A DNA stretch of 64,000 nucleotides from an uncultured Eubacteriales bacterium (GCA_949077035.1 CARUPR010000008.1:5240-69239); one strand, 5' to 3'. Numbered from the stretch's first letter, positions 15,655 to 27,522 are shown. A program made the numbers and translations. The notes: a model not told the origin generated them from the letters alone.

Positions 15655-16344
15655 TTATTCCAAAATATTTTCAATATCTTTGTTGTATTTCAATTCCATT
15701 TTTAACTTTTGATTTAAGATATTATCAACTGCTTTTGAAATGTTGTTTTTAAACATCCCCCAAAAAATATCTTGCCAGTTGTAATTGCAGAAATTGATAT
15801 TATTGCTGATAAGACCACTATTCAAGAGGTTGATTTCCTTGTTTTGGATAAACATATCTGAAGCATTGTATTCACCGCGTGCAAAATTATTTTTATGTCC
15901 AAAAGTCATTTGTCTGTCAGAGCCAACTTGAAAACCAATTTCAAATTCTTTCAAATATGCGATGTCATCAGGACCATATGGGTCGATATCGCAATAACAA
16001 ACTTCGTTTTTAATTGTGTTTGTAATAAGAGTAATTTCTTCATCTGGGTAAATTGATTTCAATTCATTCAACATTTCAGTAATAAGTGATTGCAAAGGAA
16101 CATTGAAATATCTGCTTTTTTTGTTTAAAATTTCATCAATTTTCTTAATTTTTGCCTCAGCTTTTTCAATTTCGCTATTTATTTCCTGCACTTTTTCAAT
16201 ATCAATAGGCTGGTTGATGTATTTTTGATTGTTAAGTTGATGACTTAAAAGGTATACTGTAATACCACAGTTGTTTTTCTGAGTAATTAATTCCTTATAT
16301 TTTTCAACTGCCTCTTCAATTTTTTGGTTTGTTTCAAATTTCAT
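15655..16344 (-). CDS. coiled-coil paralog family protein 1 of 3, unknown function
   Basis: Shares architecture and the C-terminal motif (W)Q(D/E)xFWG(I/M)FK(S/N)NI(E/S)K with the next two genes. Confidence 0.7.
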   Translation of the reverse strand: MKFETNQKIEEAVEKYKELITQKNNCGITVYLLSHQLNNQKYINQPIDIEKVQEINSEIEKAEAKIKKIDEILNKKSRYFNVPLQSLITEMLNELKSIYPDEEITLITNTIKNEVCYCDIDPYGPDDIAYLKEFEIGFQVGSDRQMTFGHKNNFARGEYNASDMFIQNKEINLLNSGLISNNINFCNYNWQDIFWGMFKNNISKAVDNILNQKLKMELKYNKDIENILE

Positions 16345-16414
16345 ATTTTACCTCTCATTAATTATTTATACTTTACCATATAAATTTGATAAATTTTATT
16401 TTTTAAATTTAATA

Positions 16415-17110
16415 TTAGTTGAATAATTCGTTTAAGTTTTCTTTATATTTTTCATCCAATGATTTCATTGCTGCTTTATGTTTTTGAGAAAGTTCTTCAA
16501 CCTCTTTTTCAATGTTGGATTTAAATATTCCCCAGAAATAATCCTGTAATTCTTGACAATCAAAGTCTTCTTTATTGTTGATAAGCCCAATTTCGATAAG
16601 ATTTATTTTTTCATCTCTAAGAATCATATCAAAAGCATTATATAAAGGGCTTTGTGTTGTCCTTTGAATTTTGAAAGTCATTTCTTTCTTGCCAACATTG
16701 ACGCCAAATTTAAATTCATTGCAATAGTAGGTGTCGCCAGGGCCATAGAAGTCATCGGCAGTTTTGAAAGATTTTAAAATTTTTGTATCAAAAATTTCAT
16801 AAACTTTTTTGTCAGGGTATTTTGTTGCCATTATCAAAGCCATATCTTTCAAAAGTTCTTTTACAGAAATGTTGAAAAAACGACTTTTCTTATCTAGCAA
16901 ATCTTCAATTTTTTTAATATCCTTAATATTTTTATTGATTTTGCTATTAAGTTCTTTAATTTCAGCATCTGTCAATTTTGTGAATCTAGCACCAGCAAGT
17001 GTATAATCTAAATGGTCTTTATTTTCTTTATAGCTGTCTAATTTGTTAAATAAATCTTTATATTTTTCAACTATATTTTCTATTTGTTGATTTTTAGATG
17101 TTTCTTTCAT
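16415..17110 (-). CDS. coiled-coil paralog family protein 2 of 3
   Basis: Start moved to the ATG at 17110 (MKETSKNQQIENIV...), which follows GAGGAA and matches the start of paralog 3. Confidence 0.7.
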   Translation of the reverse strand: MKETSKNQQIENIVEKYKDLFNKLDSYKENKDHLDYTLAGARFTKLTDAEIKELNSKINKNIKDIKKIEDLLDKKSRFFNISVKELLKDMALIMATKYPDKKVYEIFDTKILKSFKTADDFYGPGDTYYCNEFKFGVNVGKKEMTFKIQRTTQSPLYNAFDMILRDEKINLIEIGLINNKEDFDCQELQDYFWGIFKSNIEKEVEELSQKHKAAMKSLDEKYKENLNELFN

Positions 17111-17249
17111 AATTTTCCTCATATAATTTTTTATAATTTGGTTTAAAATAGTGGTGAATATTATTTTTAAATATTATTTCTAATTAAGAAATAATTTTAA
17201 TTTTATTTTTTATCGTTTAAGCGTGTGATAGATGACTTTTAGCTTTCAA

Positions 17250-17930
17250 TTATAATAATATGTCGTTTATCATTTCTTCATATTTTTTTTCTAATGATTG
17301 AATTTTTGCATTACGTTTTTCTGTAAGTTTTTTAATGTCTTTTTCAATGTTGCTCTTAAATATTCCCCAGAAATAATCTTGGTATTCTTGACTTGCAAAA
17401 TCTTCTTTATTGTTGATAAGTCCTGTTTTTAGGAGGTTTATTTTTATATCTTTAAGGATGGCATCACCAGCACCATACAGATAATCCTCCACTGTCTTTT
17501 GCACTATGAAAGTGATTTGTTTACCGTCTACTTGAACCCCAAACTCAAATTCCTTGCGATATAATTTCTGGTCATAGCTATTATAAAATTCTTCACATGA
17601 AACAGTGTTATAAATTTGACGAATTTTGCTATCTAGTTTATTTTGTGTCAAAGTTTTTGTAATAAAGTGAAGAAGTTTGCTTATAGGGACTTCAAAATAA
17701 TGGCTTTTATTTTTCAACAATTTTTCTATTTTTTCAATATTTTCAATATTTTTCTTAATTTTGTCATTAAGGTCTTTAATTTCATCCTTAGTCAAAGAAA
17801 TTAGTTTGTTGCCATCAAGCATATAATTTAAAAGGTCTTTAAGTTCTTTATAGCTGTCTAATTTATTTAAAATATCCTTATAATTTTCAACTATATTTTC
17901 TATTTGTTGATTTTTAGTTGTTTCTTTCAT
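17250..17930 (-). CDS. coiled-coil paralog family protein 3 of 3
   Basis: The N-terminus MKETTKNQQIENIVENYKD is near-identical to paralog 2 at protein and DNA level. C-terminal YFWGIFKSNIEKD motif. Confidence 0.7.
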   Translation of the reverse strand: MKETTKNQQIENIVENYKDILNKLDSYKELKDLLNYMLDGNKLISLTKDEIKDLNDKIKKNIENIEKIEKLLKNKSHYFEVPISKLLHFITKTLTQNKLDSKIRQIYNTVSCEEFYNSYDQKLYRKEFEFGVQVDGKQITFIVQKTVEDYLYGAGDAILKDIKINLLKTGLINNKEDFASQEYQDYFWGIFKSNIEKDIKKLTEKRNAKIQSLEKKYEEMINDILL

Positions 17931-18913: not shown

Positions 18914-19072
18914 GGCTTTTATTAAAAATTTACCGAAAAATTTTGTCAAACTTTGCTTTTTAGTTGGTTGACTTAAAGATTTTTATAAAATCCTTCAAGA
19001 ATTATTGTTTTCAGTCACAAAAAATGTGGCATTTTCCCAAAAACAACAATTTTAAAATTAGTTGTATCTTTA

Positions 19073-19522
19073 TTATGTATAACTAGGGTTTTCGACTTTA
19101 TCCCAGATATCCCTTACATACTCGTCTTCGATTTTGGCATTTTGGATAAAGTCATCTTTGTCTGAAAAGTAATAGATATTTTCAGGGCTCCAACCAAATT
19201 CAATTTCATCCTCATCATCGCCTCTAGATAAATAAAAATTTTTGTCTTGATATTTAAATTCCATTTCACCATAAAAATCAAAACCTTCTAAAAAATCATC
19301 AATGGATGGTTTAAATCCTTTGCCAGCTGCATAAAATTTTTTTGCTTTGTTGAAAGAAATTAAATTGCGATATATTACTTGGTCTGGATTTTCTTCACAC
19401 ATAGAATCATTGAACCAACCACAATATGGACAAGGGTTTATATCAAACTCTGAAGTCATGTAAACTTTCCGACAAACAGCACATTTTTTCTGTATATTTT
19501 TTTCTAATGGATTTATTTTCAT
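19073..19522 (-). CDS. Cys-ribbon (CPCC-like) paralog 5, putative immunity-type protein
   Basis: N-terminal CxxC...CPYCGW zinc-ribbon pattern followed by NLISxNKAKK. The C-terminus ENIYYFSDKDDFIQNAKIEDEYVRDIWDKVENPSYT is shared with its paralogs. Confidence 0.7.
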   Translation of the reverse strand: MKINPLEKNIQKKCAVCRKVYMTSEFDINPCPYCGWFNDSMCEENPDQVIYRNLISFNKAKKFYAAGKGFKPSIDDFLEGFDFYGEMEFKYQDKNFYLSRGDDEDEIEFGWSPENIYYFSDKDDFIQNAKIEDEYVRDIWDKVENPSYT

Positions 19523-19534
19523 TTTATTCTCCTT

Positions 19535-19626
19535 TTAACAATTACTTAAATTAATTCCTTTCGTATATTTTTGTCTTTCTTTTCCTTTTGGTTTTGTCCA
19601 ATCCCAATAATGGTCATGGGGGAAGT
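19535..19626 (-). pseudogene. 3' remnant of a second allele of the 104-aa His-rich gene
   Basis: Translates to FPHDHYWDWTKPKGKERQKYTKGINLSNC*. It is homologous at DNA level to 21773-21870, and no start codon or N-terminal part is present. Confidence 0.6.
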
Positions 19627-19664
19627 ATAATACTATAATTGTATAGGAGATTATGAGGTGGTTT

Positions 19665-20138
19665 TTATTGCAACCAATATCTGTCGGTTGTTTCGCTCCA
19701 AATGTCTTTTAATAGTTTACCTTCAACTTTTGCGTTGCTTTTAAATTCTTCATCATTATTAAAATAAATCATTTCTTTGGTCTGGGAGTTGTAAAGGCTT
19801 ATCTTTATAGCTTGTTTATTTTCAAACACTAGTTCAACAGCATAATAAACCCCATTGTATTCAAATTGCATTTCGCTATATCCATGTAATGCCTCTAAAA
19901 ATTCATCTAAATTGGGCTCAAAAGGTTTTCCTTCTTTGTAGAGCTGTCTTGCTTTATTTAGTGAAATTAAATTGGGATGAATTACATTATTGGGATTTAT
20001 ATCTGCAAAATGATTGTTTTTCCATTTGCAATTTTGGCAATCTCCTTGTTCATAAATATCTTTTTCTATAATTTCTCCACAAACCGAACATGGTTTTTCA
20101 AATACTTTATAATATAAATTATTTTTTTTATTTTTCAT
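19665..20138 (-). CDS. Cys-ribbon (CPCC-like) paralog 4
   Basis: CSVCG...CQNCKW ribbon, HPNLISLNKARQLYKEGKPF, and a divergent C-terminus. Confidence 0.7.
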   Translation of the reverse strand: MKNKKNNLYYKVFEKPCSVCGEIIEKDIYEQGDCQNCKWKNNHFADINPNNVIHPNLISLNKARQLYKEGKPFEPNLDEFLEALHGYSEMQFEYNGVYYAVELVFENKQAIKISLYNSQTKEMIYFNNDEEFKSNAKVEGKLLKDIWSETTDRYWLQ

Positions 20139-20230
20139 AATATTTACCTTTTAACATAAGCTTGAATTTGTTTTTTGTCCATCTAATCCTGTTTGAGTTG
20201 GCTATGTGTTTGGAATAATATTGATATTTT

Positions 20231-20695
20231 TTATGTATAACTAGGGTTTTCGACTTTATCCCAAATATCTCTTACATACTCGTTTCCGATTTTGGCATTT
20301 TGGATAAAGTCATCTTTGTCTGAAAAGTAATATATATTTTCAGGGCTCCAACCGAATTCAATTTTTGTTTGGTTTTTATCATTATCATCATAGATAAGAA
20401 AAACACAACATTCTTTTTCTTTATACCAAAATTCAACTTCGCCATAAAAATAAAGCATATTAAGGAAATCATTTAAATCTGGTCTTAAAGGTTTTCCTTC
20501 CTTAACAAGTTTTTTGGCTTTGTTTTCTGATACAACATTAGGGAAAATTATATTATCTTCATTTTCGCCATCGAAATTTGAATTATACCAACCACAATAA
20601 TCACAATCCCCATGGCCCAATTTATCATATTTTATCATTTTTCCGCAAATATTACATTTTTTGTCTATAATTTTTTCATATGGATTATTTTTCAT
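20231..20695 (-). CDS. Cys-ribbon (CPCC-like) paralog 3
   Basis: CNICG...CDYCGW ribbon. The last ~130 nt are near-identical to paralogs 1 and 5. Confidence 0.7.
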   Translation of the reverse strand: MKNNPYEKIIDKKCNICGKMIKYDKLGHGDCDYCGWYNSNFDGENEDNIIFPNVVSENKAKKLVKEGKPLRPDLNDFLNMLYFYGEVEFWYKEKECCVFLIYDDNDKNQTKIEFGWSPENIYYFSDKDDFIQNAKIGNEYVRDIWDKVENPSYT

Positions 20696-20734
20696 TTTAT
20701 TTTCCTATGAATGATAAGATTTTAATAAATTTTA

Positions 20735-21181
20735 TTATAAATAACTAGGGTTTTCGACTTTTACCCAAATATCTCTTACATACTCATTTTCAATTTTCGC
20801 ATTTGCGATAAAATCATCTTTGTTTTTAAAAAACAATGTTCCGTTTCCCCAGCACATTTCAATGCCATTATCTCCATGTCGGAATAAGCTATAGCCTATT
20901 TGGTTGTAGTCAAAACTTGTTTCTCCGTAAAATTCAAAGGCTTCAAGAAAATCATCCAATGAAGGACATAATTTTTTGTTCTGTTGATATAGCTTTTTTG
21001 CAGTATTTAGAGATATCAGGTTAGAAAAGATGACTTTATCTGGAAACTCACAATAAATTGTTCCATTATACCATCCACAATTAAAACATTCTCCTTGTTC
21101 ATAAATGTCTGCCATATATTTATTTCCACAAACAGCGCAATGCTTTTCAAATACTTTATCATAAATATTATTGTTTTTCAT
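20735..21181 (-). CDS. Cys-ribbon (CPCC-like) paralog 2
   Basis: CAVCG...CFNCGW ribbon and a related C-terminal KDDFIANAKIENEYVRDIWVKVENPSYL. Confidence 0.7.
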   Translation of the reverse strand: MKNNNIYDKVFEKHCAVCGNKYMADIYEQGECFNCGWYNGTIYCEFPDKVIFSNLISLNTAKKLYQQNKKLCPSLDDFLEAFEFYGETSFDYNQIGYSLFRHGDNGIEMCWGNGTLFFKNKDDFIANAKIENEYVRDIWVKVENPSYL

Positions 21182-21191
21182 ATTTTACTCC

Positions 21192-21250
21192 TATGAACAA
21201 AATGATGTATTGGTATATTTCCTACCATCAGAGCCATACCACCTTTGTAA
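21192..21250 (-). pseudogene. internal remnant of the His-rich gene
   Basis: Reads QRWYGSDGRKYTNTSFCS*. The segment accatcagagccataccacctttg matches 21930-21955 of the intact gene (QQRWYGPDG). Confidence 0.45.
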
Positions 21251-21297
21251 TTTAAACTTTATTTGAGTTTGCTATGTGTTTGGTATATTATTGATTT

Positions 21298-21759
21298 TTA
21301 TGTATAACTAGGGTTTTCGACTTTATCCCAGATATCTCTTACATACTCGTCTTCGATTTTGGCATTTGCGATAAAGTCATCTTTGTCTGAAAAGTAATAT
21401 ATATTTTCAGGGCTCCAACCAAATTCAATTTTTGAAATGTCACCATTATTTTTGTGCAATAAAATTACACAACATTCTTTTTCTTTATACCAAAATTCAA
21501 CTTCGCTATAAGAGTATAACATATCAAGGAAATCATTTAAATCTGGTCTTAAAGGTTTTCCTTCCTTAATAAGTTTTTTTGCTTTGTTTTTAGATACAAC
21601 ATTAGGGAAGGTTACATATTCTTCATTTTCATCGCCGAATTTATCGTTAAACCAACCACAATTTGAGCAAGCTCCATTGCCGCTGCTATCTACCAAAAGA
21701 CTTTTGTCGCAAACAGAACATTTGCTCTTTATATTTTTTTCAAATGGATTTATTTTCAT
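21298..21759 (-). CDS. Cys-ribbon (CPCC-like) paralog 1
   Basis: CSVCD...CSNCGW ribbon. Begins 14 nt after the stop of the 104-aa gene. Confidence 0.7.
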   Translation of the reverse strand: MKINPFEKNIKSKCSVCDKSLLVDSSGNGACSNCGWFNDKFGDENEEYVTFPNVVSKNKAKKLIKEGKPLRPDLNDFLDMLYSYSEVEFWYKEKECCVILLHKNNGDISKIEFGWSPENIYYFSDKDDFIANAKIEDEYVRDIWDKVENPSYT

Positions 21760-21772
21760 TTTTATCTCCTTC

Positions 21773-22087
21773 TTAGCATTTACTTAAATTTATTTTTTCA
21801 TTATTCGGTCCTTTATATTCAAGCCTTTGTTTTCCTGGTGGCTTTGTCCAATCCCAATAATGGTCGTGGGGGAAAGTATGATTATGATGTGCATTTCCAT
21901 GAGCCCAATCTCTATCCCATATTGCAAGACCATCAGGTCCATACCATCTTTGTTGAAGCAATTTTTTTGTTTTTTCATCATAGTAATCTATTCTAATATT
22001 TGGTTTTTCACTCCATCTTTCATGTATATTAGACCTATAAGGTCCAAACATATCAAATTTCCCGCCGCTTGATTTACACATTCCCAT
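21773..22087 (-). CDS. small His/Trp-rich protein (104 aa), putative toxin-type module
   Basis: Motif RWYGPDGLAIWDRDWAHGNAHHNHTFPHDHYWDW. Its ATG overlaps the stop of the upstream gene (ATAATGG), implying translational coupling. Truncated copies occur downstream. Confidence 0.6.
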   Translation of the reverse strand: MGMCKSSGGKFDMFGPYRSNIHERWSEKPNIRIDYYDEKTKKLLQQRWYGPDGLAIWDRDWAHGNAHHNHTFPHDHYWDWTKPPGKQRLEYKGPNNEKINLSKC

Positions 22088-22905
22088 TATAGCACCTCCT
22101 GTGGCAAAACTTCAAATGTTTTGGATATTGTTTCTCCACCAATGCCAACAAGTTTAAATTTTAAATTTTTTCCTATTATTTCTTTTATTTTTAATTTTGT
22201 GGCGAATGGGCCGATGACATTATATTTTTTATCTATTATTTTATCATCTAAAATCCACTCAATTCTGTCGGTGAATAGGGTTTTTACTTGAATAGTTCCT
22301 TGATAATTGTCGACTTCTATTGAAACAATTTTTGGGGCACCTATTAAGTAATCGTTTCTTTTTATTTCAAATAGTTTTTTCATATCTTCATATGATAGCG
22401 AAAACCAATCTACATCTTGATATGGATTTTTTATTAGGGGAATGGTGTTTTGTTTTATTTCAATTCCGTTGCCGCCAAAACATTTTAAATCTGCAACCAT
22501 TTTCCACCTAAAGACCTTATTTCTCTCTTTATAATCTATTATTGCTTTATTTAGATGTGATGCAAATTGCATTTCTGAGCATTTGTTGACTTTTATAAAA
22601 TGCTTCTCAGCCTCTTCACCAAAGCCCAATCTTACAGAGTTTTTAAAATGTTTTACGCCATGGCATCTTGAGCAAATTGCAATAATTTTTGTCAATATTT
22701 GAGTTTTTCTTTTTATGTCAAAATCCCATTCCTCATGTGCATCAAGCTCATCTGTTTCATATCCGCAAATCTCACACCTGCCTTTTGCTCTTTTTAGGGC
22801 ATATTTGCGAAGGATATCCCAGTCATTTTTTGGCAGGGTTTTGCTTAAGTCATTATTCCATGCTCCTTTTGGAAGCATATTTATTGTAAGTTTCATCTCT
22901 TCCAT
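22087..22905 (-). CDS. HNH-type zinc-finger nuclease-like protein with an unknown C-terminal domain
   Basis: CEICGYETDELDAHEEWDFD...QILTKIIAICSRCHGVKH gives a CxxC...H-E...CxxCH..H pattern. SD AGGAGG lies 6 nt upstream. Confidence 0.6.
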   Translation of the reverse strand: MEEMKLTINMLPKGAWNNDLSKTLPKNDWDILRKYALKRAKGRCEICGYETDELDAHEEWDFDIKRKTQILTKIIAICSRCHGVKHFKNSVRLGFGEEAEKHFIKVNKCSEMQFASHLNKAIIDYKERNKVFRWKMVADLKCFGGNGIEIKQNTIPLIKNPYQDVDWFSLSYEDMKKLFEIKRNDYLIGAPKIVSIEVDNYQGTIQVKTLFTDRIEWILDDKIIDKKYNVIGPFATKLKIKEIIGKNLKFKLVGIGGETISKTFEVLPQEVL

Positions 22906-22915
22906 AGCCTGCCTC

Positions 22916-23650
22916 CTATATTTCTGGATAAAGCTGGCCGGCGAGATATCTTTTTGTAAACTCTTCTAAGCCTATCTTTTTTATCAAATTTTCGCTATCG
23001 AAAGGGTCTATTGCTTTTATATTGCCTTTCATTTCTTTAAAAGGTGTGCCATAACAAATGATTGCGCTCGGTTTTATTTTTTCCATCATAATTTCATAGC
23101 CTTCCATAAATCCCTTCTTGTTGTCTTCTCTTGTGTATGTTGAAACTGCCACAACAGAGCCCTCTTCAACACCGTCACAAAAGAATTCAAAGCAATCATA
23201 AGAGCCCCATGAAATTGTTGGAATTACAAGCATCCCTTGTCTTTGCCAAAAGGCGCCGCACCAACGATTTTTGAAAACGCTATCAATCTGCCGGGCAAGG
23301 GGCATATCTTTATAGGTGCTAAACTCGGGTGTCAACAATGCATAGTATTGGTCCAGTTTTTCTAGGGCTTGTGCTGGTTTGTCATAGACAGTTTCAAAAT
23401 TCCAATCGTAGGTAAAAAAGTGGATGGATTTATTTTTGTTTTCAACATCATCATTTTTTGTTTTTAAAAAGCTTAATAATTCAATTTTGTCTAAATCAAT
23501 TTTTTGCTTTTTGATAAGTGGCATTCCATATTTGCCAGTTTTTTCAAATTCGTTTCTTACAAGTTTTTGTTTTTTATGTCGCTTTTCTTCATAATAATCA
23601 TAATCATTAGTAAAAGAAAAAAGCGAACTCAGTTGTTCGTTTTTAATCAT
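22916..23650 (-). CDS. DUF4417-like protein
   Basis: Pattern IHFFTYDWNFE...LLTPEFSTYKDMPLARQIDSVFKNRWCGAFWQRQGMLVIPTISW matches my recollection of DUF4417. First gene of the operon. Confidence 0.55.
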   Translation of the reverse strand: MIKNEQLSSLFSFTNDYDYYEEKRHKKQKLVRNEFEKTGKYGMPLIKKQKIDLDKIELLSFLKTKNDDVENKNKSIHFFTYDWNFETVYDKPAQALEKLDQYYALLTPEFSTYKDMPLARQIDSVFKNRWCGAFWQRQGMLVIPTISWGSYDCFEFFCDGVEEGSVVAVSTYTREDNKKGFMEGYEIMMEKIKPSAIICYGTPFKEMKGNIKAIDPFDSENLIKKIGLEEFTKRYLAGQLYPEI

Positions 23651-24535: not shown

Positions 24536-24871
24536 CTAAGAATTATAATCATAGGGAATTTTATTTTTTCTTTCTCCAAGTAAATTTAAAATATACCCAT
24601 CTTCAACTTTGCACCACCAATGGGGGTCATTTTTGGGAAGGTCTTGCAAGATTGATTGGTCTGAAAGTTTATTATCTTTGACCAGTTCTAAATCTTTTAC
24701 GTGAACCAATATTTCAGCATAATCGCTTCCATCAGGTCTTGAAAATACGACTTCAAATTTATTTTCTCTAAGCCAAGCAAATATTATAGTGCCGATTGCG
24801 CCCTTAAAGACGCCTTCTTTTTCATATTTTTCTTTGCTTACAGTGACTCTTACTTGGTCTAACCATTTCAT
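24536..24871 (-). CDS. small protein, DUF4926-like N-terminal half (antitoxin/immunity-like)
   Basis: The SH3-like pattern VRVTVSKEKYEKEGVFKGAIGTIIFAW...FEVVFSRPDG resembles DUF4926. 4-nt overlap with the upstream ORF. Confidence 0.45.
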   Translation of the reverse strand: MKWLDQVRVTVSKEKYEKEGVFKGAIGTIIFAWLRENKFEVVFSRPDGSDYAEILVHVKDLELVKDNKLSDQSILQDLPKNDPHWWCKVEDGYILNLLGERKNKIPYDYNS

Positions 24872-25161
24872 TGTTTTCCTCCTTTAATCTTTTTATTAAG
24901 TGAGGCAATTTTAATTTTGCCGTTTGGCCATACGACACAACCTATATGGCAATTAAATTTTTCGTGAGAATGTTCATTCTTGCCATCTAAAATAAAATTT
25001 ATTTGAATATGTTGTCTATTTTCATTTAAAGTTTTTAATTGATATCTATTATTAAGAAAACCTTGTGAAACTTCTTGTGAAATTTTTTTATACAATTCAT
25101 TTGCATTTTCTTTATTATATCCCATACTTCTCATCATTGCAAACTTATTTGGTTCATACAA
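24868..25161 (-). CDS. small protein, possibly DUF6883-like toxin-type module or a remnant
   Basis: FAMMRSMGYNKENANELYKKI... then ...CHIGCVVWPNGKIKI loosely fits the DUF6883 pattern. No SD upstream of either candidate ATG. Confidence 0.3.
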   Translation of the reverse strand: MYEPNKFAMMRSMGYNKENANELYKKISQEVSQGFLNNRYQLKTLNENRQHIQINFILDGKNEHSHEKFNCHIGCVVWPNGKIKIASLNKKIKGGKQ

Positions 25162-25256: not shown

Positions 25257-26788
25257 ATGAATAAAAAATCTATTAAAAGTTTTTTATTTCTTTTTTTATT
25301 TTGTTAGTTCCAGGTTTATTTTTTGCTGGATGTGGTGCAACTAAGCTCACAATTACTTTTGATACTAATGGTGGTAGTTTTATAGAAAGAGTTTTAGTAA
25401 AATCGGGGGAAAGTATTTCAAAACCAACTGACCCTATCAAAGAAGATTATATATTTGATGGTTGGTTTTGGGATGAGGATTTTCAACTCGCGTTTAGATT
25501 TGGTGAGGATAAAATTACAAAAGATACAATACTTTATGCAAAATGGCGTCAACCTAAAACATTTGAAATAACATTTAATTCTAATGGCGGGTCTAAGGTG
25601 CCAAACCAATATATGCAGGAGGGTGGAAGTTTTGCAAAGCCAGAGATGCCAACACGAGTTGGCTATGTTTTTGATGATTGGTATCTAAATAATGGGCAGA
25701 AATTTGACTTTGACGTTGATTTCAAAAACATAATTGAGGACACAACTCTTTTTGCACGTTGGAATGCACTTTTTACACTCAGTCAAGAAGGAACAGCAAT
25801 TACAGGTTTGACAGATTATTCTCGAAATATTAAGAATTTAGTTATTCCAGATGAAATTGATGGGAATGTAATTACTACATTAAAGGAAGGCGCACTTGCA
25901 GGTGGAAAATTTGAAACCCTTGAATTCGGTAAAGATTTAAAAACATTTGAAAGTAAACAATTCATAGGAAAGGCATTAAGTGAAAACCCATTAAAAGAAG
26001 TTTATTTTAATGGAACCATTGACGATTGGGTTAAAATCTTATTCGCTGATACAAGCCCTCTGTGTGCAAATTTTGATGGTGTAAAACTATTTGCAGATGA
26101 CGAAGAAGTTTCAGGGAATATTGCTATTACTGCTAATGTAAATTATATTCAACCTTATGCTTTTGCTGGTCTTAAAATTACGGGTGTAACATTGCCAGAA
26201 AGTGTAAAATTTATTGGGAATTCAGCTTTTTACAACTGCTCAAAACTCACAACTATAAATTTGGAGAAAGTTGTTTATATTTATGAAGGCGCCTTTTGGG
26301 GCTGTGCAGAACTGCAAAGCGTGTCACTTGATTTGGCTCAAAAGATTTTCAAGAAAGCATTCTTTGAATGTTTAAAACTAAAAGATGTCAAAGTAGGCTC
26401 TTATTTAAATGAAGTTCAACAAGAAGCCTTTCTTGCTTGTCCAATTGAGAAAATTGATTTAGCAATTACTCGTCTTGAAAAATTGGGAGAAAAGGCTTTT
26501 GGATGCACTGCATTACGAGAGGTGAAACTTCCATATACTTTGACAGAATATCACTTAGATTCCTTTTTTAACTGCATGTCCCTTAAGACGATGATAATTG
26601 ATTCAAATACAATATATCAAAATTTATCTCAAAAGCCATCCTTCTGTGGAGGTTTGACAACTTTTAAAGTTTCCGATTCGGTTATTCAAAATTCGGGAGA
26701 AAATACTTGGCTTTACAACACAGAAATATTTACACACACTCAAGAAAACGGGTATCATGTTTTCACTTTTAATTATGCAGTAAAATAA
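25257..26788 (+). CDS. surface lipoprotein with Listeria-Bacteroides (Flg_new) repeats and BspA-type LRRs, frameshifted in the signal peptide
   Basis: Strong SD GAAGGAGA plus ATG 25257 encodes MNKKSIKSFLFLFLFC*. The long ORF (25301..26788, LVPGLFFAGCG...) is in another frame, and one extra T in the T7 run 25291-25297 fuses them. Repeats ITFDTNGG...GWF and LRR_5-like IGNSAFYNCSKLTTINL are present. Confidence 0.75.
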
Positions 26789-26835: not shown

Positions 26836-27522
26836 ATGTTTTTTATTTTAAAGAAAAAGGCGATTATCGCCTGGCTATTAGGAGTTTTACTCATAGCAAC
26901 CTTTTGTGCCACATATTTTTCTATTAAAACTAATGCAATGCCAAAGCCGCTTCACACTATTGTCATTGATGCCGGTCATGGCGGTAGGGATGGTGGAGCA
27001 ATTGGCTCGGCAACAGGGGTGACCGAAAGTGAACTTAATCTTATGTATGCAAAAAAACTTGCAAAGCTTTGTGAAGATTTTGGAATCAAGGCTGTGCTTA
27101 CCCGAAGTGATATGAATGGGCTCTATGATGAAAATGCACAAAACAAGAAAAAGAGTGAAATGGAAAAAAGGAAAAGCATTATAAATGGTTGTGGTGCTGA
27201 TATCATGGTCAGTATTCATATGAATTCTTTTCCACTTTCCTCAAGTGAAGGTGCACAAATTTTTTACGCAAAGGGCAGTGAAAATGGATTTAATCTTGCA
27301 AAAAGTGTGCAAACAAGTGTGTGTCAGTCTTTTAAAAGCGCAAGAGATTATGTAAGTGTTGGTGACTATTATGTGATAAACACAGCGAAGATGCCTGCCA
27401 TTTTGGTTGAGTGCGGTTTTTTATCAAATCCAAATGAAGAGCGGCTTTTGAAAAGCAATGATTACTGCGAAAAATTTTGCTATTCGATTCTTGCAGGTGT
27501 AATTTCATATTTTGAAATATGA
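26836..27522 (+). CDS. cwlD: germination-specific N-acetylmuramoyl-L-alanine amidase
   Basis: N-terminal TM helix, IDAGHGGRDGGA, MVSIHMNSF and GAQIFY. Size is typical of CwlD. Confidence 0.8.
   Translation: MFFILKKKAIIAWLLGVLLIATFCATYFSIKTNAMPKPLHTIVIDAGHGGRDGGAIGSATGVTESELNLMYAKKLAKLCEDFGIKAVLTRSDMNGLYDENAQNKKKSEMEKRKSIINGCGADIMVSIHMNSFPLSSSEGAQIFYAKGSENGFNLAKSVQTSVCQSFKSARDYVSVGDYYVINTAKMPAILVECGFLSNPNEERLLKSNDYCEKFCYSILAGVISYFEI

Follow-up and report, generated by a model that had tools for sequence, protein, structure and literature searches.

A probable polymorphic toxin/immunity locus with a free-standing toxin gene and five two-domain immunity-type paralogs in an uncultured gut Clostridia bacterium

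Introduction

In the orphan arrays of contact-dependent growth inhibition (CDI), Rhs and LXG systems, toxin domains common to RHS, LXG and FilH proteins have an immunity gene immediately downstream, extra immunity genes occur together with truncated toxin pieces, recombination takes place at conserved flanks, and the subtypes of toxin and immunity protein co-vary (PMC3482391). A comparable arrangement is described here in a 64,000-nucleotide stretch of DNA from an uncultured Eubacteriales bacterium (GCA_949077035.1, CARUPR010000008.1:5240-69239; hereafter the window), where an intact gene for a 104-residue putative toxin and five paralogous genes of the CPCC zinc-ribbon type lie at positions 19,073 to 22,087. 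Judged from the sequences, this is probably a polymorphic toxin/immunity locus on the chromosome of an uncultured, Christensenellales-like member of the gut Clostridia. However, it departs from the CDI, Rhs and LXG arrays in several respects. Its toxin is a free-standing protein of 104 residues with no N-terminal trafficking, repeat or pre-toxin region and with no secretion genes nearby; what would correspond to the constant part is a separate HNH-like gene together with a DUF4417 gene, rather than the body of the toxin; and its immunity proteins are two-domain fusions.

Individual parts of the locus also resemble systems that have been described elsewhere. Ntox24 (PF15529) is an all-beta toxin domain with conserved Y, H and H that is found in RHS, FilH, LXG, MuF and HINT contexts and in apparent type-II toxin-antitoxin (TA) pairs, and its endoRNase activity is a prediction only (PMC3482391). 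The family of the 104-residue protein shares with Ntox24 the all-beta character, the conserved Tyr and His, the range of partners and the TA-like pairs, but it carries N- and C-terminal extensions (MGMCKPSGG... and ...YC) and is paired with CPCC fusions instead of Imm50 or Imm53, and neither the window protein nor its family of 64 clusters matches PF15529 at E ≤ 1. On the immunity side, the N-terminal 55-60 residues of the paralogs have the same zinc-ribbon fold and belong to the same sequence family as the CDI immunity protein (CdiI) of Escherichia coli O32:H37 (8EY3; complex, 8EY4). This CdiI consists of the CPCC domain alone (58-70 residues), whereas the window paralogs add a second domain of ~80 residues, and neither a PDB sequence search with the toxin profile (E ≤ 10) nor the 50 listed fold matches of the toxin model linked the window toxin to the E. 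coli toxin in 8EY4. In the Paenibacillus larvae phage Fern, gp26 (phrog_18811) ends in the same toxin domain, and gp27 (phrog_3711), encoded by the next gene, is a homologue of the second domain of the paralogs. Unlike the window proteins, gp26 is a secreted protein of 676 residues with a signal peptide, SH3-like repeats and PT-TG, and gp27 lacks the CPCC ribbon and lies in a prophage moron context rather than in a chromosomal array.

The array was first pointed out in an initial annotation made from the sequence alone. Beyond that annotation, the locus is found to contain two-domain immunity fusions, a distant link of the toxin to Ntox24 and a conserved four-gene unit.

Results

Layout of the locus

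Eight closely spaced open reading frames (ORFs) with intergenic gaps of 0-142 nt occupy positions 19073-23650 on the minus strand. All the ORFs named in the initial annotation, that is, an intact 104-residue gene and then five paralogs of ~150 residues, are among them. A DUF4417 gene, an HNH-like gene, the free-standing toxin gene and a CPCC gene form a conserved four-gene unit. The features are listed below in their order along the minus strand.

22916..23650, minus strand: DUF4417 gene, 244 residues, first of the conserved four-gene unit (PF14386, E 9.5e-51; phrog_940/8680)
22087..22905, minus strand: HNH-like gene, 272 residues (phrog_5200 HNH endonuclease, E 9.8e-29, residues 3-138)
21773..22087, minus strand: intact free-standing toxin gene, 104 residues, predicted Ntox24-like all-beta His-rich domain (family profile at C-terminal tips; phrog_18811)
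21298..21759, minus strand: paralog 1, 153 residues, CPCC zinc ribbon joined to a phrog_3711-like domain, presumably the cognate immunity gene (PF14206; phrog_6332; phrog_3711)
21262..21283, minus strand: junction repeat, copy 1 (CCAAACACATAGCAAACTCAAA; exact two-copy match)
21224..21247, minus strand: internal remnant of a toxin gene (QRWYGSDG; 21/24 nt identical to 21929-21952)
20735..21181, minus strand: paralog 2, 148 residues, putative orphan immunity gene (45% identical to paralog 1)
20231..20695, minus strand: paralog 3, 154 residues, putative orphan immunity gene, nearest to paralog 1 (71% identical)
20192..20213, minus strand: junction repeat, copy 2 (CCAAACACATAGCCAACTCAAA; exact two-copy match)
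19665..20138, minus strand: paralog 4, 157 residues, putative orphan immunity gene, the most divergent (PF14206, 27.0 bits; phrog_3711, E 7.5e-7)
19535..19626, minus strand: 3' remnant of a putatively displaced toxin gene (FPHDHYWDWTKPKGKERQKYTKGINLSNC and stop codon; tblastn, 61-nt repeat and reading of the sequence)
19073..19522, minus strand: paralog 5, 149 residues, putative orphan immunity gene behind the 3' toxin remnant (PF14206, 27.0 bits)
19051..19206, minus strand: shared 3' block of the paralogs, with further copies at 20209-20364 and 21276-21431 and a weaker one at 20713-20868 (156-nt repeat family)

The stop codon of the HNH-like gene overlaps the ATG of the toxin gene (TAATG, read in the sequence), and paralog 1 starts 13 nt past the toxin stop codon. 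A promoter scan gave 37 promoter-like sites against 31.7 expected, which is uninformative in such AT-rich DNA, and a terminator scan found none within the array. At most 7% of the words of the locus are present in public sequencing runs.

The toxin domain is found at the C-terminal tips of polymorphic toxins

A profile built from 63 members of the toxin family was searched against 1.84 billion representative proteins (cut-off E ≤ 1e-3) and gave 647 protein matches. The matches other than standalone proteins, which cover profile positions ~10-88, are located at the extreme C-terminus of proteins of 200-2030 residues that carry RHS repeats, LXG, Fil_haemagg_2, PT-HINT, PT-TG or PAAR-like DUF4280 domains, and in most matches the toxin domain is the last one, directly after known pre-toxin modules. 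Extreme C-terminal placement on such varied bodies is the signature of a polymorphic-toxin warhead (PMC3482391), and the domain is therefore read as one. Furthermore, Ntox24 is matched by four of 142 profile relatives (best E 1.7e-5), and on these sequence matches the toxin family is distantly linked to Ntox24. The link to toxin domains for which the initial annotation proposed profile searches is thus seen through the family profile, but not through any Pfam toxin model of the protein itself. Phage sequences give a similar picture: the protein matches the C-terminus of the phrog_18811 'toxin' (E 6.8e-6) and, in a viral library, C-terminal regions of minor capsid proteins from phages (E 1e-4), and in tblastn the domain ends the annotated 'toxin' of Paenibacillus larvae phages.

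The standalone family comprises ~64 clusters of ~100-residue proteins without Pfam annotation. Its invariant residues are Q45, Q46, R47, D60, H63, H70, P73, H74, D75 and H76, and Y49 is nearly invariant. The start MGMCKPSGG is also nearly invariant among standalone members (53 of 63) and is lacking in the fused forms; likewise, the last residue is Cys in 53 and Tyr in seven of the 63, and the terminal Cys does not occur in fused forms. These conserved termini may serve to form a terminal disulfide or a metal site, or they may signal maturation. The ends of the window toxin itself are atypical for the family (MGMCKSSGG ... LSKC).

The AlphaFold2 (AF2) model of the 104-residue protein is all-beta, with six strands, no helix and a mean predicted local distance difference test (pLDDT) score of 89.7. 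As had been remarked at the outset, the toxin candidate is tiny and has no delivery domain: it consists of the bare domain with short extensions, and no signal peptide, trafficking or secretion module or other Pfam domain was seen in it. Scans of the protein with Pfam, NCBIfam and PADLOC returned no toxin or defence family, and the toxin profile had no match at E ≤ 10 among PDB sequences. Readings of the toxin as a LAS/M23-type metallopeptidase or a His-Me finger were rejected, as the order of the motifs disagrees with them and the model contains no helix. The Ct_MAD domain of MuF toxins (PMC5576092) was also set aside, as it comes from Proteobacteria phage proteins and has no link to the 104-residue family.

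The paralogs combine two immunity-type domains

Each paralog consists of an N-terminal CPCC ribbon and a C-terminal domain of ~80 residues. The resemblance to CPCC proposed initially is borne out by matches of all five paralogs to PF14206, with paralogs 4 and 5 above the gathering score (27.0 against 24.5 bits), and the zinc-ribbon cysteines C14, C17, C31 and C34 are invariant in 46 aligned sequences. The AF2 model of paralog 1 has a pLDDT of 93.9, and its CPCC domain matches 8ey4_I/8ey3 in Foldseek with a probability of 1.0, a TM score of 0.80 and a root-mean-square deviation of 1.8 Å; hmmsearch relates the CPCC domain to the same protein (E 0.0018). According to the PDB titles, 8EY3 is a CDI immunity protein and 8EY4 a toxin-immunity complex (chain I) of E. 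coli O32:H37.

The C-terminal domain has a different connection. It matches phrog_3711 (E 5.8e-5 and 7.5e-7), to which Fern gp27 belongs (E 1.8e-25), and gp27, which comes directly after the toxin gp26, aligns with the C-terminal domain of the paralogs (hhalign, E 2e-5). Because the phrog_3711 domain is paired with the same toxin tip in a distant lineage, this provides independent support for a cognate toxin/immunity relation. By homology, both paralog domains are thus seen elsewhere as immunity proteins.

At the protein level, paralogs 2-5 are 36-71% identical to paralog 1, and any pair is 32-71% identical. The four orphan paralogs are intact and keep all family-invariant residues. No helix-turn-helix, ribbon-helix-helix or AbrB domain was found in the paralogs in family scans. 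The toxin and paralog 1 are both small and cytoplasmic, and they are coupled in sequence. Literature searches on CPCC immunity and on the 8EY4 complex found no paper.

Related loci show a conserved unit with exchangeable toxin/immunity parts

A scan of species-representative genomes yielded 63 related loci, which were mapped by tblastn and all belong to metagenome-assembled genomes of uncultured gut Clostridia, Christensenellales or 'Ca. Onthoplasma'. Their usual layout is DUF4417 - HNH - toxin - CPCC beside an Amidase_3 gene, and ~10 loci have the permuted order toxin - CPCC - DUF4417 - HNH. Across these loci from different species, the CPCC gene normally lies directly after the toxin, and 65 of 110 CPCC ORFs are directly behind a full toxin. 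There is one CPCC gene in 23 loci, two in 30 and three in seven; at least two are present in 37 of the 63, whereas two full toxins occur in only eight and truncated toxins in eight. With its five paralogs, the window array is the largest among the 64 loci compared. Several displaced cassettes in the relatives keep the last 30-80 HNH codons ahead of the toxin, which points to the 3' end of HNH and the 5' end of the toxin gene as a recombination anchor. In addition, the relatives match the window's DUF4417 protein at a median identity of 85% and its HNH protein at 72%, against 60% for the best CPCC protein, 59% for the flanking amidase and 58% for the toxin, so that the cassette has a constant and a variable part.

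The toxin subtypes, which differ in the His loop and the tail, are associated with particular paralogs. The nearest relatives of paralog 2 include three that lie directly behind an intact toxin (L018, L037 and L040; 71-72%), two of them of the KHKNENPKNPHKYPHDH subtype, and four that do not (L015, L062, L066 and L068). The nearest relatives of paralog 4 (69-76%) follow toxins of the GGGEHEWPHDHSWDW subtype, those of paralog 5 (65-67%) follow toxins of the NPKGNHKFPHDHPWDWSK subtype, and a fourth subtype precedes relatives of paralogs 1 and 3. Since the relatives stand behind distinct toxin subtypes, the orphans appear to have been assembled from different cassettes and not to have arisen by local duplication, with a possible exception in paralogs 1 and 3. 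Cassette shuffling among relatives, anticipated in the initial annotation, is therefore visible in the extra full or truncated cassettes, in the HNH stubs and in the subtype-specific pairing.

The DUF4417 protein stands out by its conservation. It is 75-87% identical in the best 120 of 697 matches and in most of the 63 loci, whereas the adjacent amidase is only 38-73% identical (window genes 22916-23650 and 26836-27522, respectively), a contrast in sequence identity that suggests horizontal spread or very strong constraint. The best 120 of the 697 matches are all standalone proteins of ~245 residues, which carries no weight for or against DUF4417-toxin fusions. Among published mentions of DUF4417, none in a toxin/immunity context was found, and a literature search found no paper describing the four-gene unit.

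Fragments of amidase residues ~1-52 recur downstream of the cassette, in the orientation of the amidase, in eight related loci (L028, L029, L040, L054, L064, L066, L067 and L072; for example, L040:6896-7045). The sequences of those loci give the impression that the cassette lies within the amidase gene, at its 5' end, and supplies a replacement start; the window has no such fragment.

Toxin remnants and mosaic paralogs record earlier cassettes

Two toxin remnants lie between the paralogs, as the initial annotation had stated. The 3' remnant matches residues 72-104 of the intact gene at 19538-19624 (tblastn, E 2e-9), and a 61-nt DNA repeat within it (19564-19624) is 85% identical to 21814-21874. 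It keeps the reading frame and the stop codon, and is followed by the same ribosome-binding site (RBS) and start context as paralog 1. The internal remnant spans 21224-21247 and shares 21 of its 24 nt with the intact gene, where no match is expected by chance (100 shuffles). The duplicated junction segment, CCAAACACATAGC[C/A]AACTCAAA, is likewise real, with copies at 20192-20213 and 21262-21283 and none expected by chance. The further claim that displaced toxin tips are each followed by their own partner stands in part: a remnant precedes paralogs 2 and 5, but none is detectable upstream of the other two of the four orphans. Within the window array, neither an amidase 5' fragment nor an HNH 3' stub was found at E ≤ 1.

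The paralogs themselves are mosaic at the DNA level, as measured in 60-column windows of their alignment. In columns 421-480 (~20-80 nt before the stop codon), the identity is 95% for paralogs 1 and 5, 95% for 3 and 5, and 93% for 1 and 3, whereas the identity of paralog 5 to either of the other two drops to 48-68% in the 5' windows. Paralogs 1 and 3 remain 80-93% identical to each other over columns 181-540, which end just past the stop codon, and fall to 56-65% in the zinc-ribbon part. The near-identical 3' ends and diverging 5' parts reported initially for paralogs 1, 3 and 5 are thus found, with the qualification that 1 and 3 diverge in the zinc ribbon only. The 156-nt 3' block runs past the stop codon and is 88-90% identical among paralogs 1, 3 and 5, against 63% for paralog 2.

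Discussion

The initial reading of the locus as a polymorphic-toxin-like array is upheld by the distribution of the toxin domain at C-terminal tips, by the CDI-type CPCC domain, by the pairing in phage Fern, and by the adjacency of toxin and CPCC genes, the additional full or truncated cassettes and the subtype-specific pairing in relatives. How could such an array work and arise? Paralog 1 would bind and block the resident toxin, and its action is placed in the cytoplasm because both proteins lack a signal peptide. Paralogs 2-5 would be orphan immunity genes left behind as successive toxin-immunity cassettes were displaced by recombination, while deletions reduced the old toxin genes to a 3' stub of 92 nt and an internal one of 24 nt and the immunity genes were kept. 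The 3' block of the paralogs could serve as the downstream recombination anchor, with the conserved end of the HNH gene and beginning of the toxin gene as the other, and the shared block would be maintained by gene conversion. By analogy with the activity predicted for Ntox24, the toxin might cleave RNA, and the conserved cluster D58/D60/H63/H70/H74/H76 is a candidate active or metal site; from its residues, the Asp/His cluster could equally bind metal.

Several observations weigh against this explanation. The 104-residue protein matches no Ntox24 or other toxin model in Pfam at E ≤ 1, a Foldseek comparison of the toxin model with PDB structures had no match better than E 0.6 and no 8EY4 chain in its list of 50 matches, and a literature search on Ntox24 found no experimental paper. 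The co-variation of distances between toxins and their adjacent CPCC proteins (Mantel r 0.68, p 0.0005) speaks for the explanation, but its value is uncorrected for the phylogeny that the species share. Near the locus, neither a secretion signal nor a secretion system can be seen. In a minority of architectures, the toxin domain is followed by a membrane hairpin of ~50 residues that often scores as Tox-WTIP, a predicted pore-former, and in such tailed proteins the toxin domain may not be the warhead. Finally, LXG and haemagglutinin toxins with the same tip are paired not with CPCC proteins but with another immunity family (~125 residues, weakly YxiG-like).

The members of this partner family at L010:5914-6288, L011:5302-5679 and L012:2199-2600 are mutually homologous and share the motifs HD..I..Y, WPM.Y and SSYGL.GW; their sole Pfam match is the weak YxiG-like one, and by sequence they likely constitute an unnamed immunity family. 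A relationship between the LXG/FilH immunity proteins (P0213-P0215) and the window paralogs was considered and rejected (hhalign probability 0.4%). Among polymorphic toxins, a single toxin family with several immunity families is usual.

The rival explanation that survives best, which is possible though not probable, treats the pair as an addiction module, a toxin-antitoxin system resembling type II, that would keep a selfish DUF4417-HNH cassette stable. The toxin would then stay in the cell, and the extra paralogs would be leftovers or 'anti-addiction' antitoxins, since loss of the toxin is safe and loss of the antidote is not, so that antidotes accumulate. Such a module agrees with the lack of a signal peptide or trafficking domain in the toxin and paralog proteins, with the Ntox24 versions in apparent type-II TA pairs (Zhang et al., PMC3482391), and with the tight linkage of the pair to DUF4417 and HNH even under permuted gene order. 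It also agrees with the median identity of DUF4417 against that of the amidase (85% and 59%), as expected of a spreading element, and with the amidase 5' fragments downstream of the cassette in the eight related loci. Against it, the four orphans are intact to every family-invariant residue, and CPCC genes outnumber toxins in the relatives as given above; orphan CPCC genes that are common across species point to selection for protection against the toxins of others. In addition, toxin subtypes co-vary with their partners, as in interbacterial systems, and the toxin gene comes first and the immunity gene second.

The same evidence bears on where the toxin acts within a polymorphic toxin/immunity locus. 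Transfer of the toxin between cells by some route is modestly favoured, as the orphans that stay intact in many species speak for exposure to foreign toxins. Use of the toxin inside the cell only, as an addiction module, is a credible prospect of less than even weight, favoured by the lack of an export signal and by the linkage to a possibly selfish DUF4417-HNH pair.

It is improbable that the 104-residue domain instead serves folding, entry or membrane targeting, as an adaptor or pre-toxin module ahead of the real warhead, with the CPCC paralogs as zinc-ribbon regulators or chaperones. This idea draws on the tailed proteins, in which a Tox-WTIP hairpin follows the domain in the RHS proteins P0175 and P0199 and the short proteins P0114 and P0138, and a hydrophobic tail follows it in P0099, P0154, P0164, P0173 and P0200; the Pfam Tox-WTIP model may, for its part, overlap the WDW end of the toxin domain. 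It draws as well on the N-terminal half of the 104-residue protein, which resembles YD-repeat hairpins (DUF2963 match). However, the domain is last in most matches, including LXG, haemagglutinin-repeat, PT-HINT and PT-TG proteins, and what comes next is a small immunity-type gene of one of two unrelated families. The invariant Asp/His cluster, as a sequence feature, suggests catalysis or metal binding, and the CPCC domain is a solved immunity protein.

Hardly credible at all is mere tandem expansion of zinc-ribbon genes by unequal crossing-over, with paralogs unrelated to toxin variants and 'remnants' that are chance or debris: simple duplication does yield tandem paralogs with homogenised ends, and an unrelated paralog trio lies only 1.2 kb away (15655-17930), but both remnants and the junction have no matches expected by chance, the 3' remnant retains its frame, stop codon and downstream RBS, and each paralog is closer (60-76%) to genes of other species, most of them behind an intact toxin subtype.

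A more speculative, and doubtful, extension of the preferred toxin/immunity reading would make the four-gene unit a previously undescribed selfish cassette without an integrase. HNH/DUF4417 would move it or maintain it at one chromosomal site, by or inside a sporulation-type amidase gene, and the toxin/immunity pair would be its swappable payload. The ends specific to standalone toxins would act as a new export or maturation signal, so that no fused trafficking domain would be needed.

A free-standing warhead of ~100 residues that bears the full population-genetic signature of an interbacterial toxin, with subtype diversification, cognate partners, orphan arrays and cassette displacement, prompts the question by what route such toxins arrive at their targets in the abundant, uncultured gut Clostridia (Christensenellales). 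The locus also offers a testable function for a toxin family that lacks both a Pfam model and a structural relative in the PDB, as well as for the CPCC/phrog_3711 fusions, and it gives DUF4417, a domain of unknown function that is widespread in phages, a defined setting in biological conflict. Furthermore, the five window paralogs are a ready panel for studying immunity specificity.

Neighbouring genes

Other genes in the surroundings of the array show features of their own. Between the cassette and the amidase gene, an overlapping pair of genes for 97 and 111 residues lies at 24536-25161, the second of which is DUF4926-like (E 2.8e-5). In L044, the same pair (85-87% identical) separates the amidase from DUF4417, and L035 and L057 have copies of DUF4926 beside the cassette. 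A gene for a 495-residue surface protein with BspA-type leucine-rich repeats (LRRs) and Listeria-Bacteroides repeats (25301-26788) separates the accessory stretch from the amidase gene; in the related loci examined, the BspA-type LRR gene does not occur at that position. The trio at 15655-17930 consists of three tandem minus-strand paralogs of 229, 235 and 226 residues without family assignment, of which the first two are 51% and 34% identical to the third, and it forms a second paralog array in the accessory stretch between an HD-domain gene and the amidase gene.

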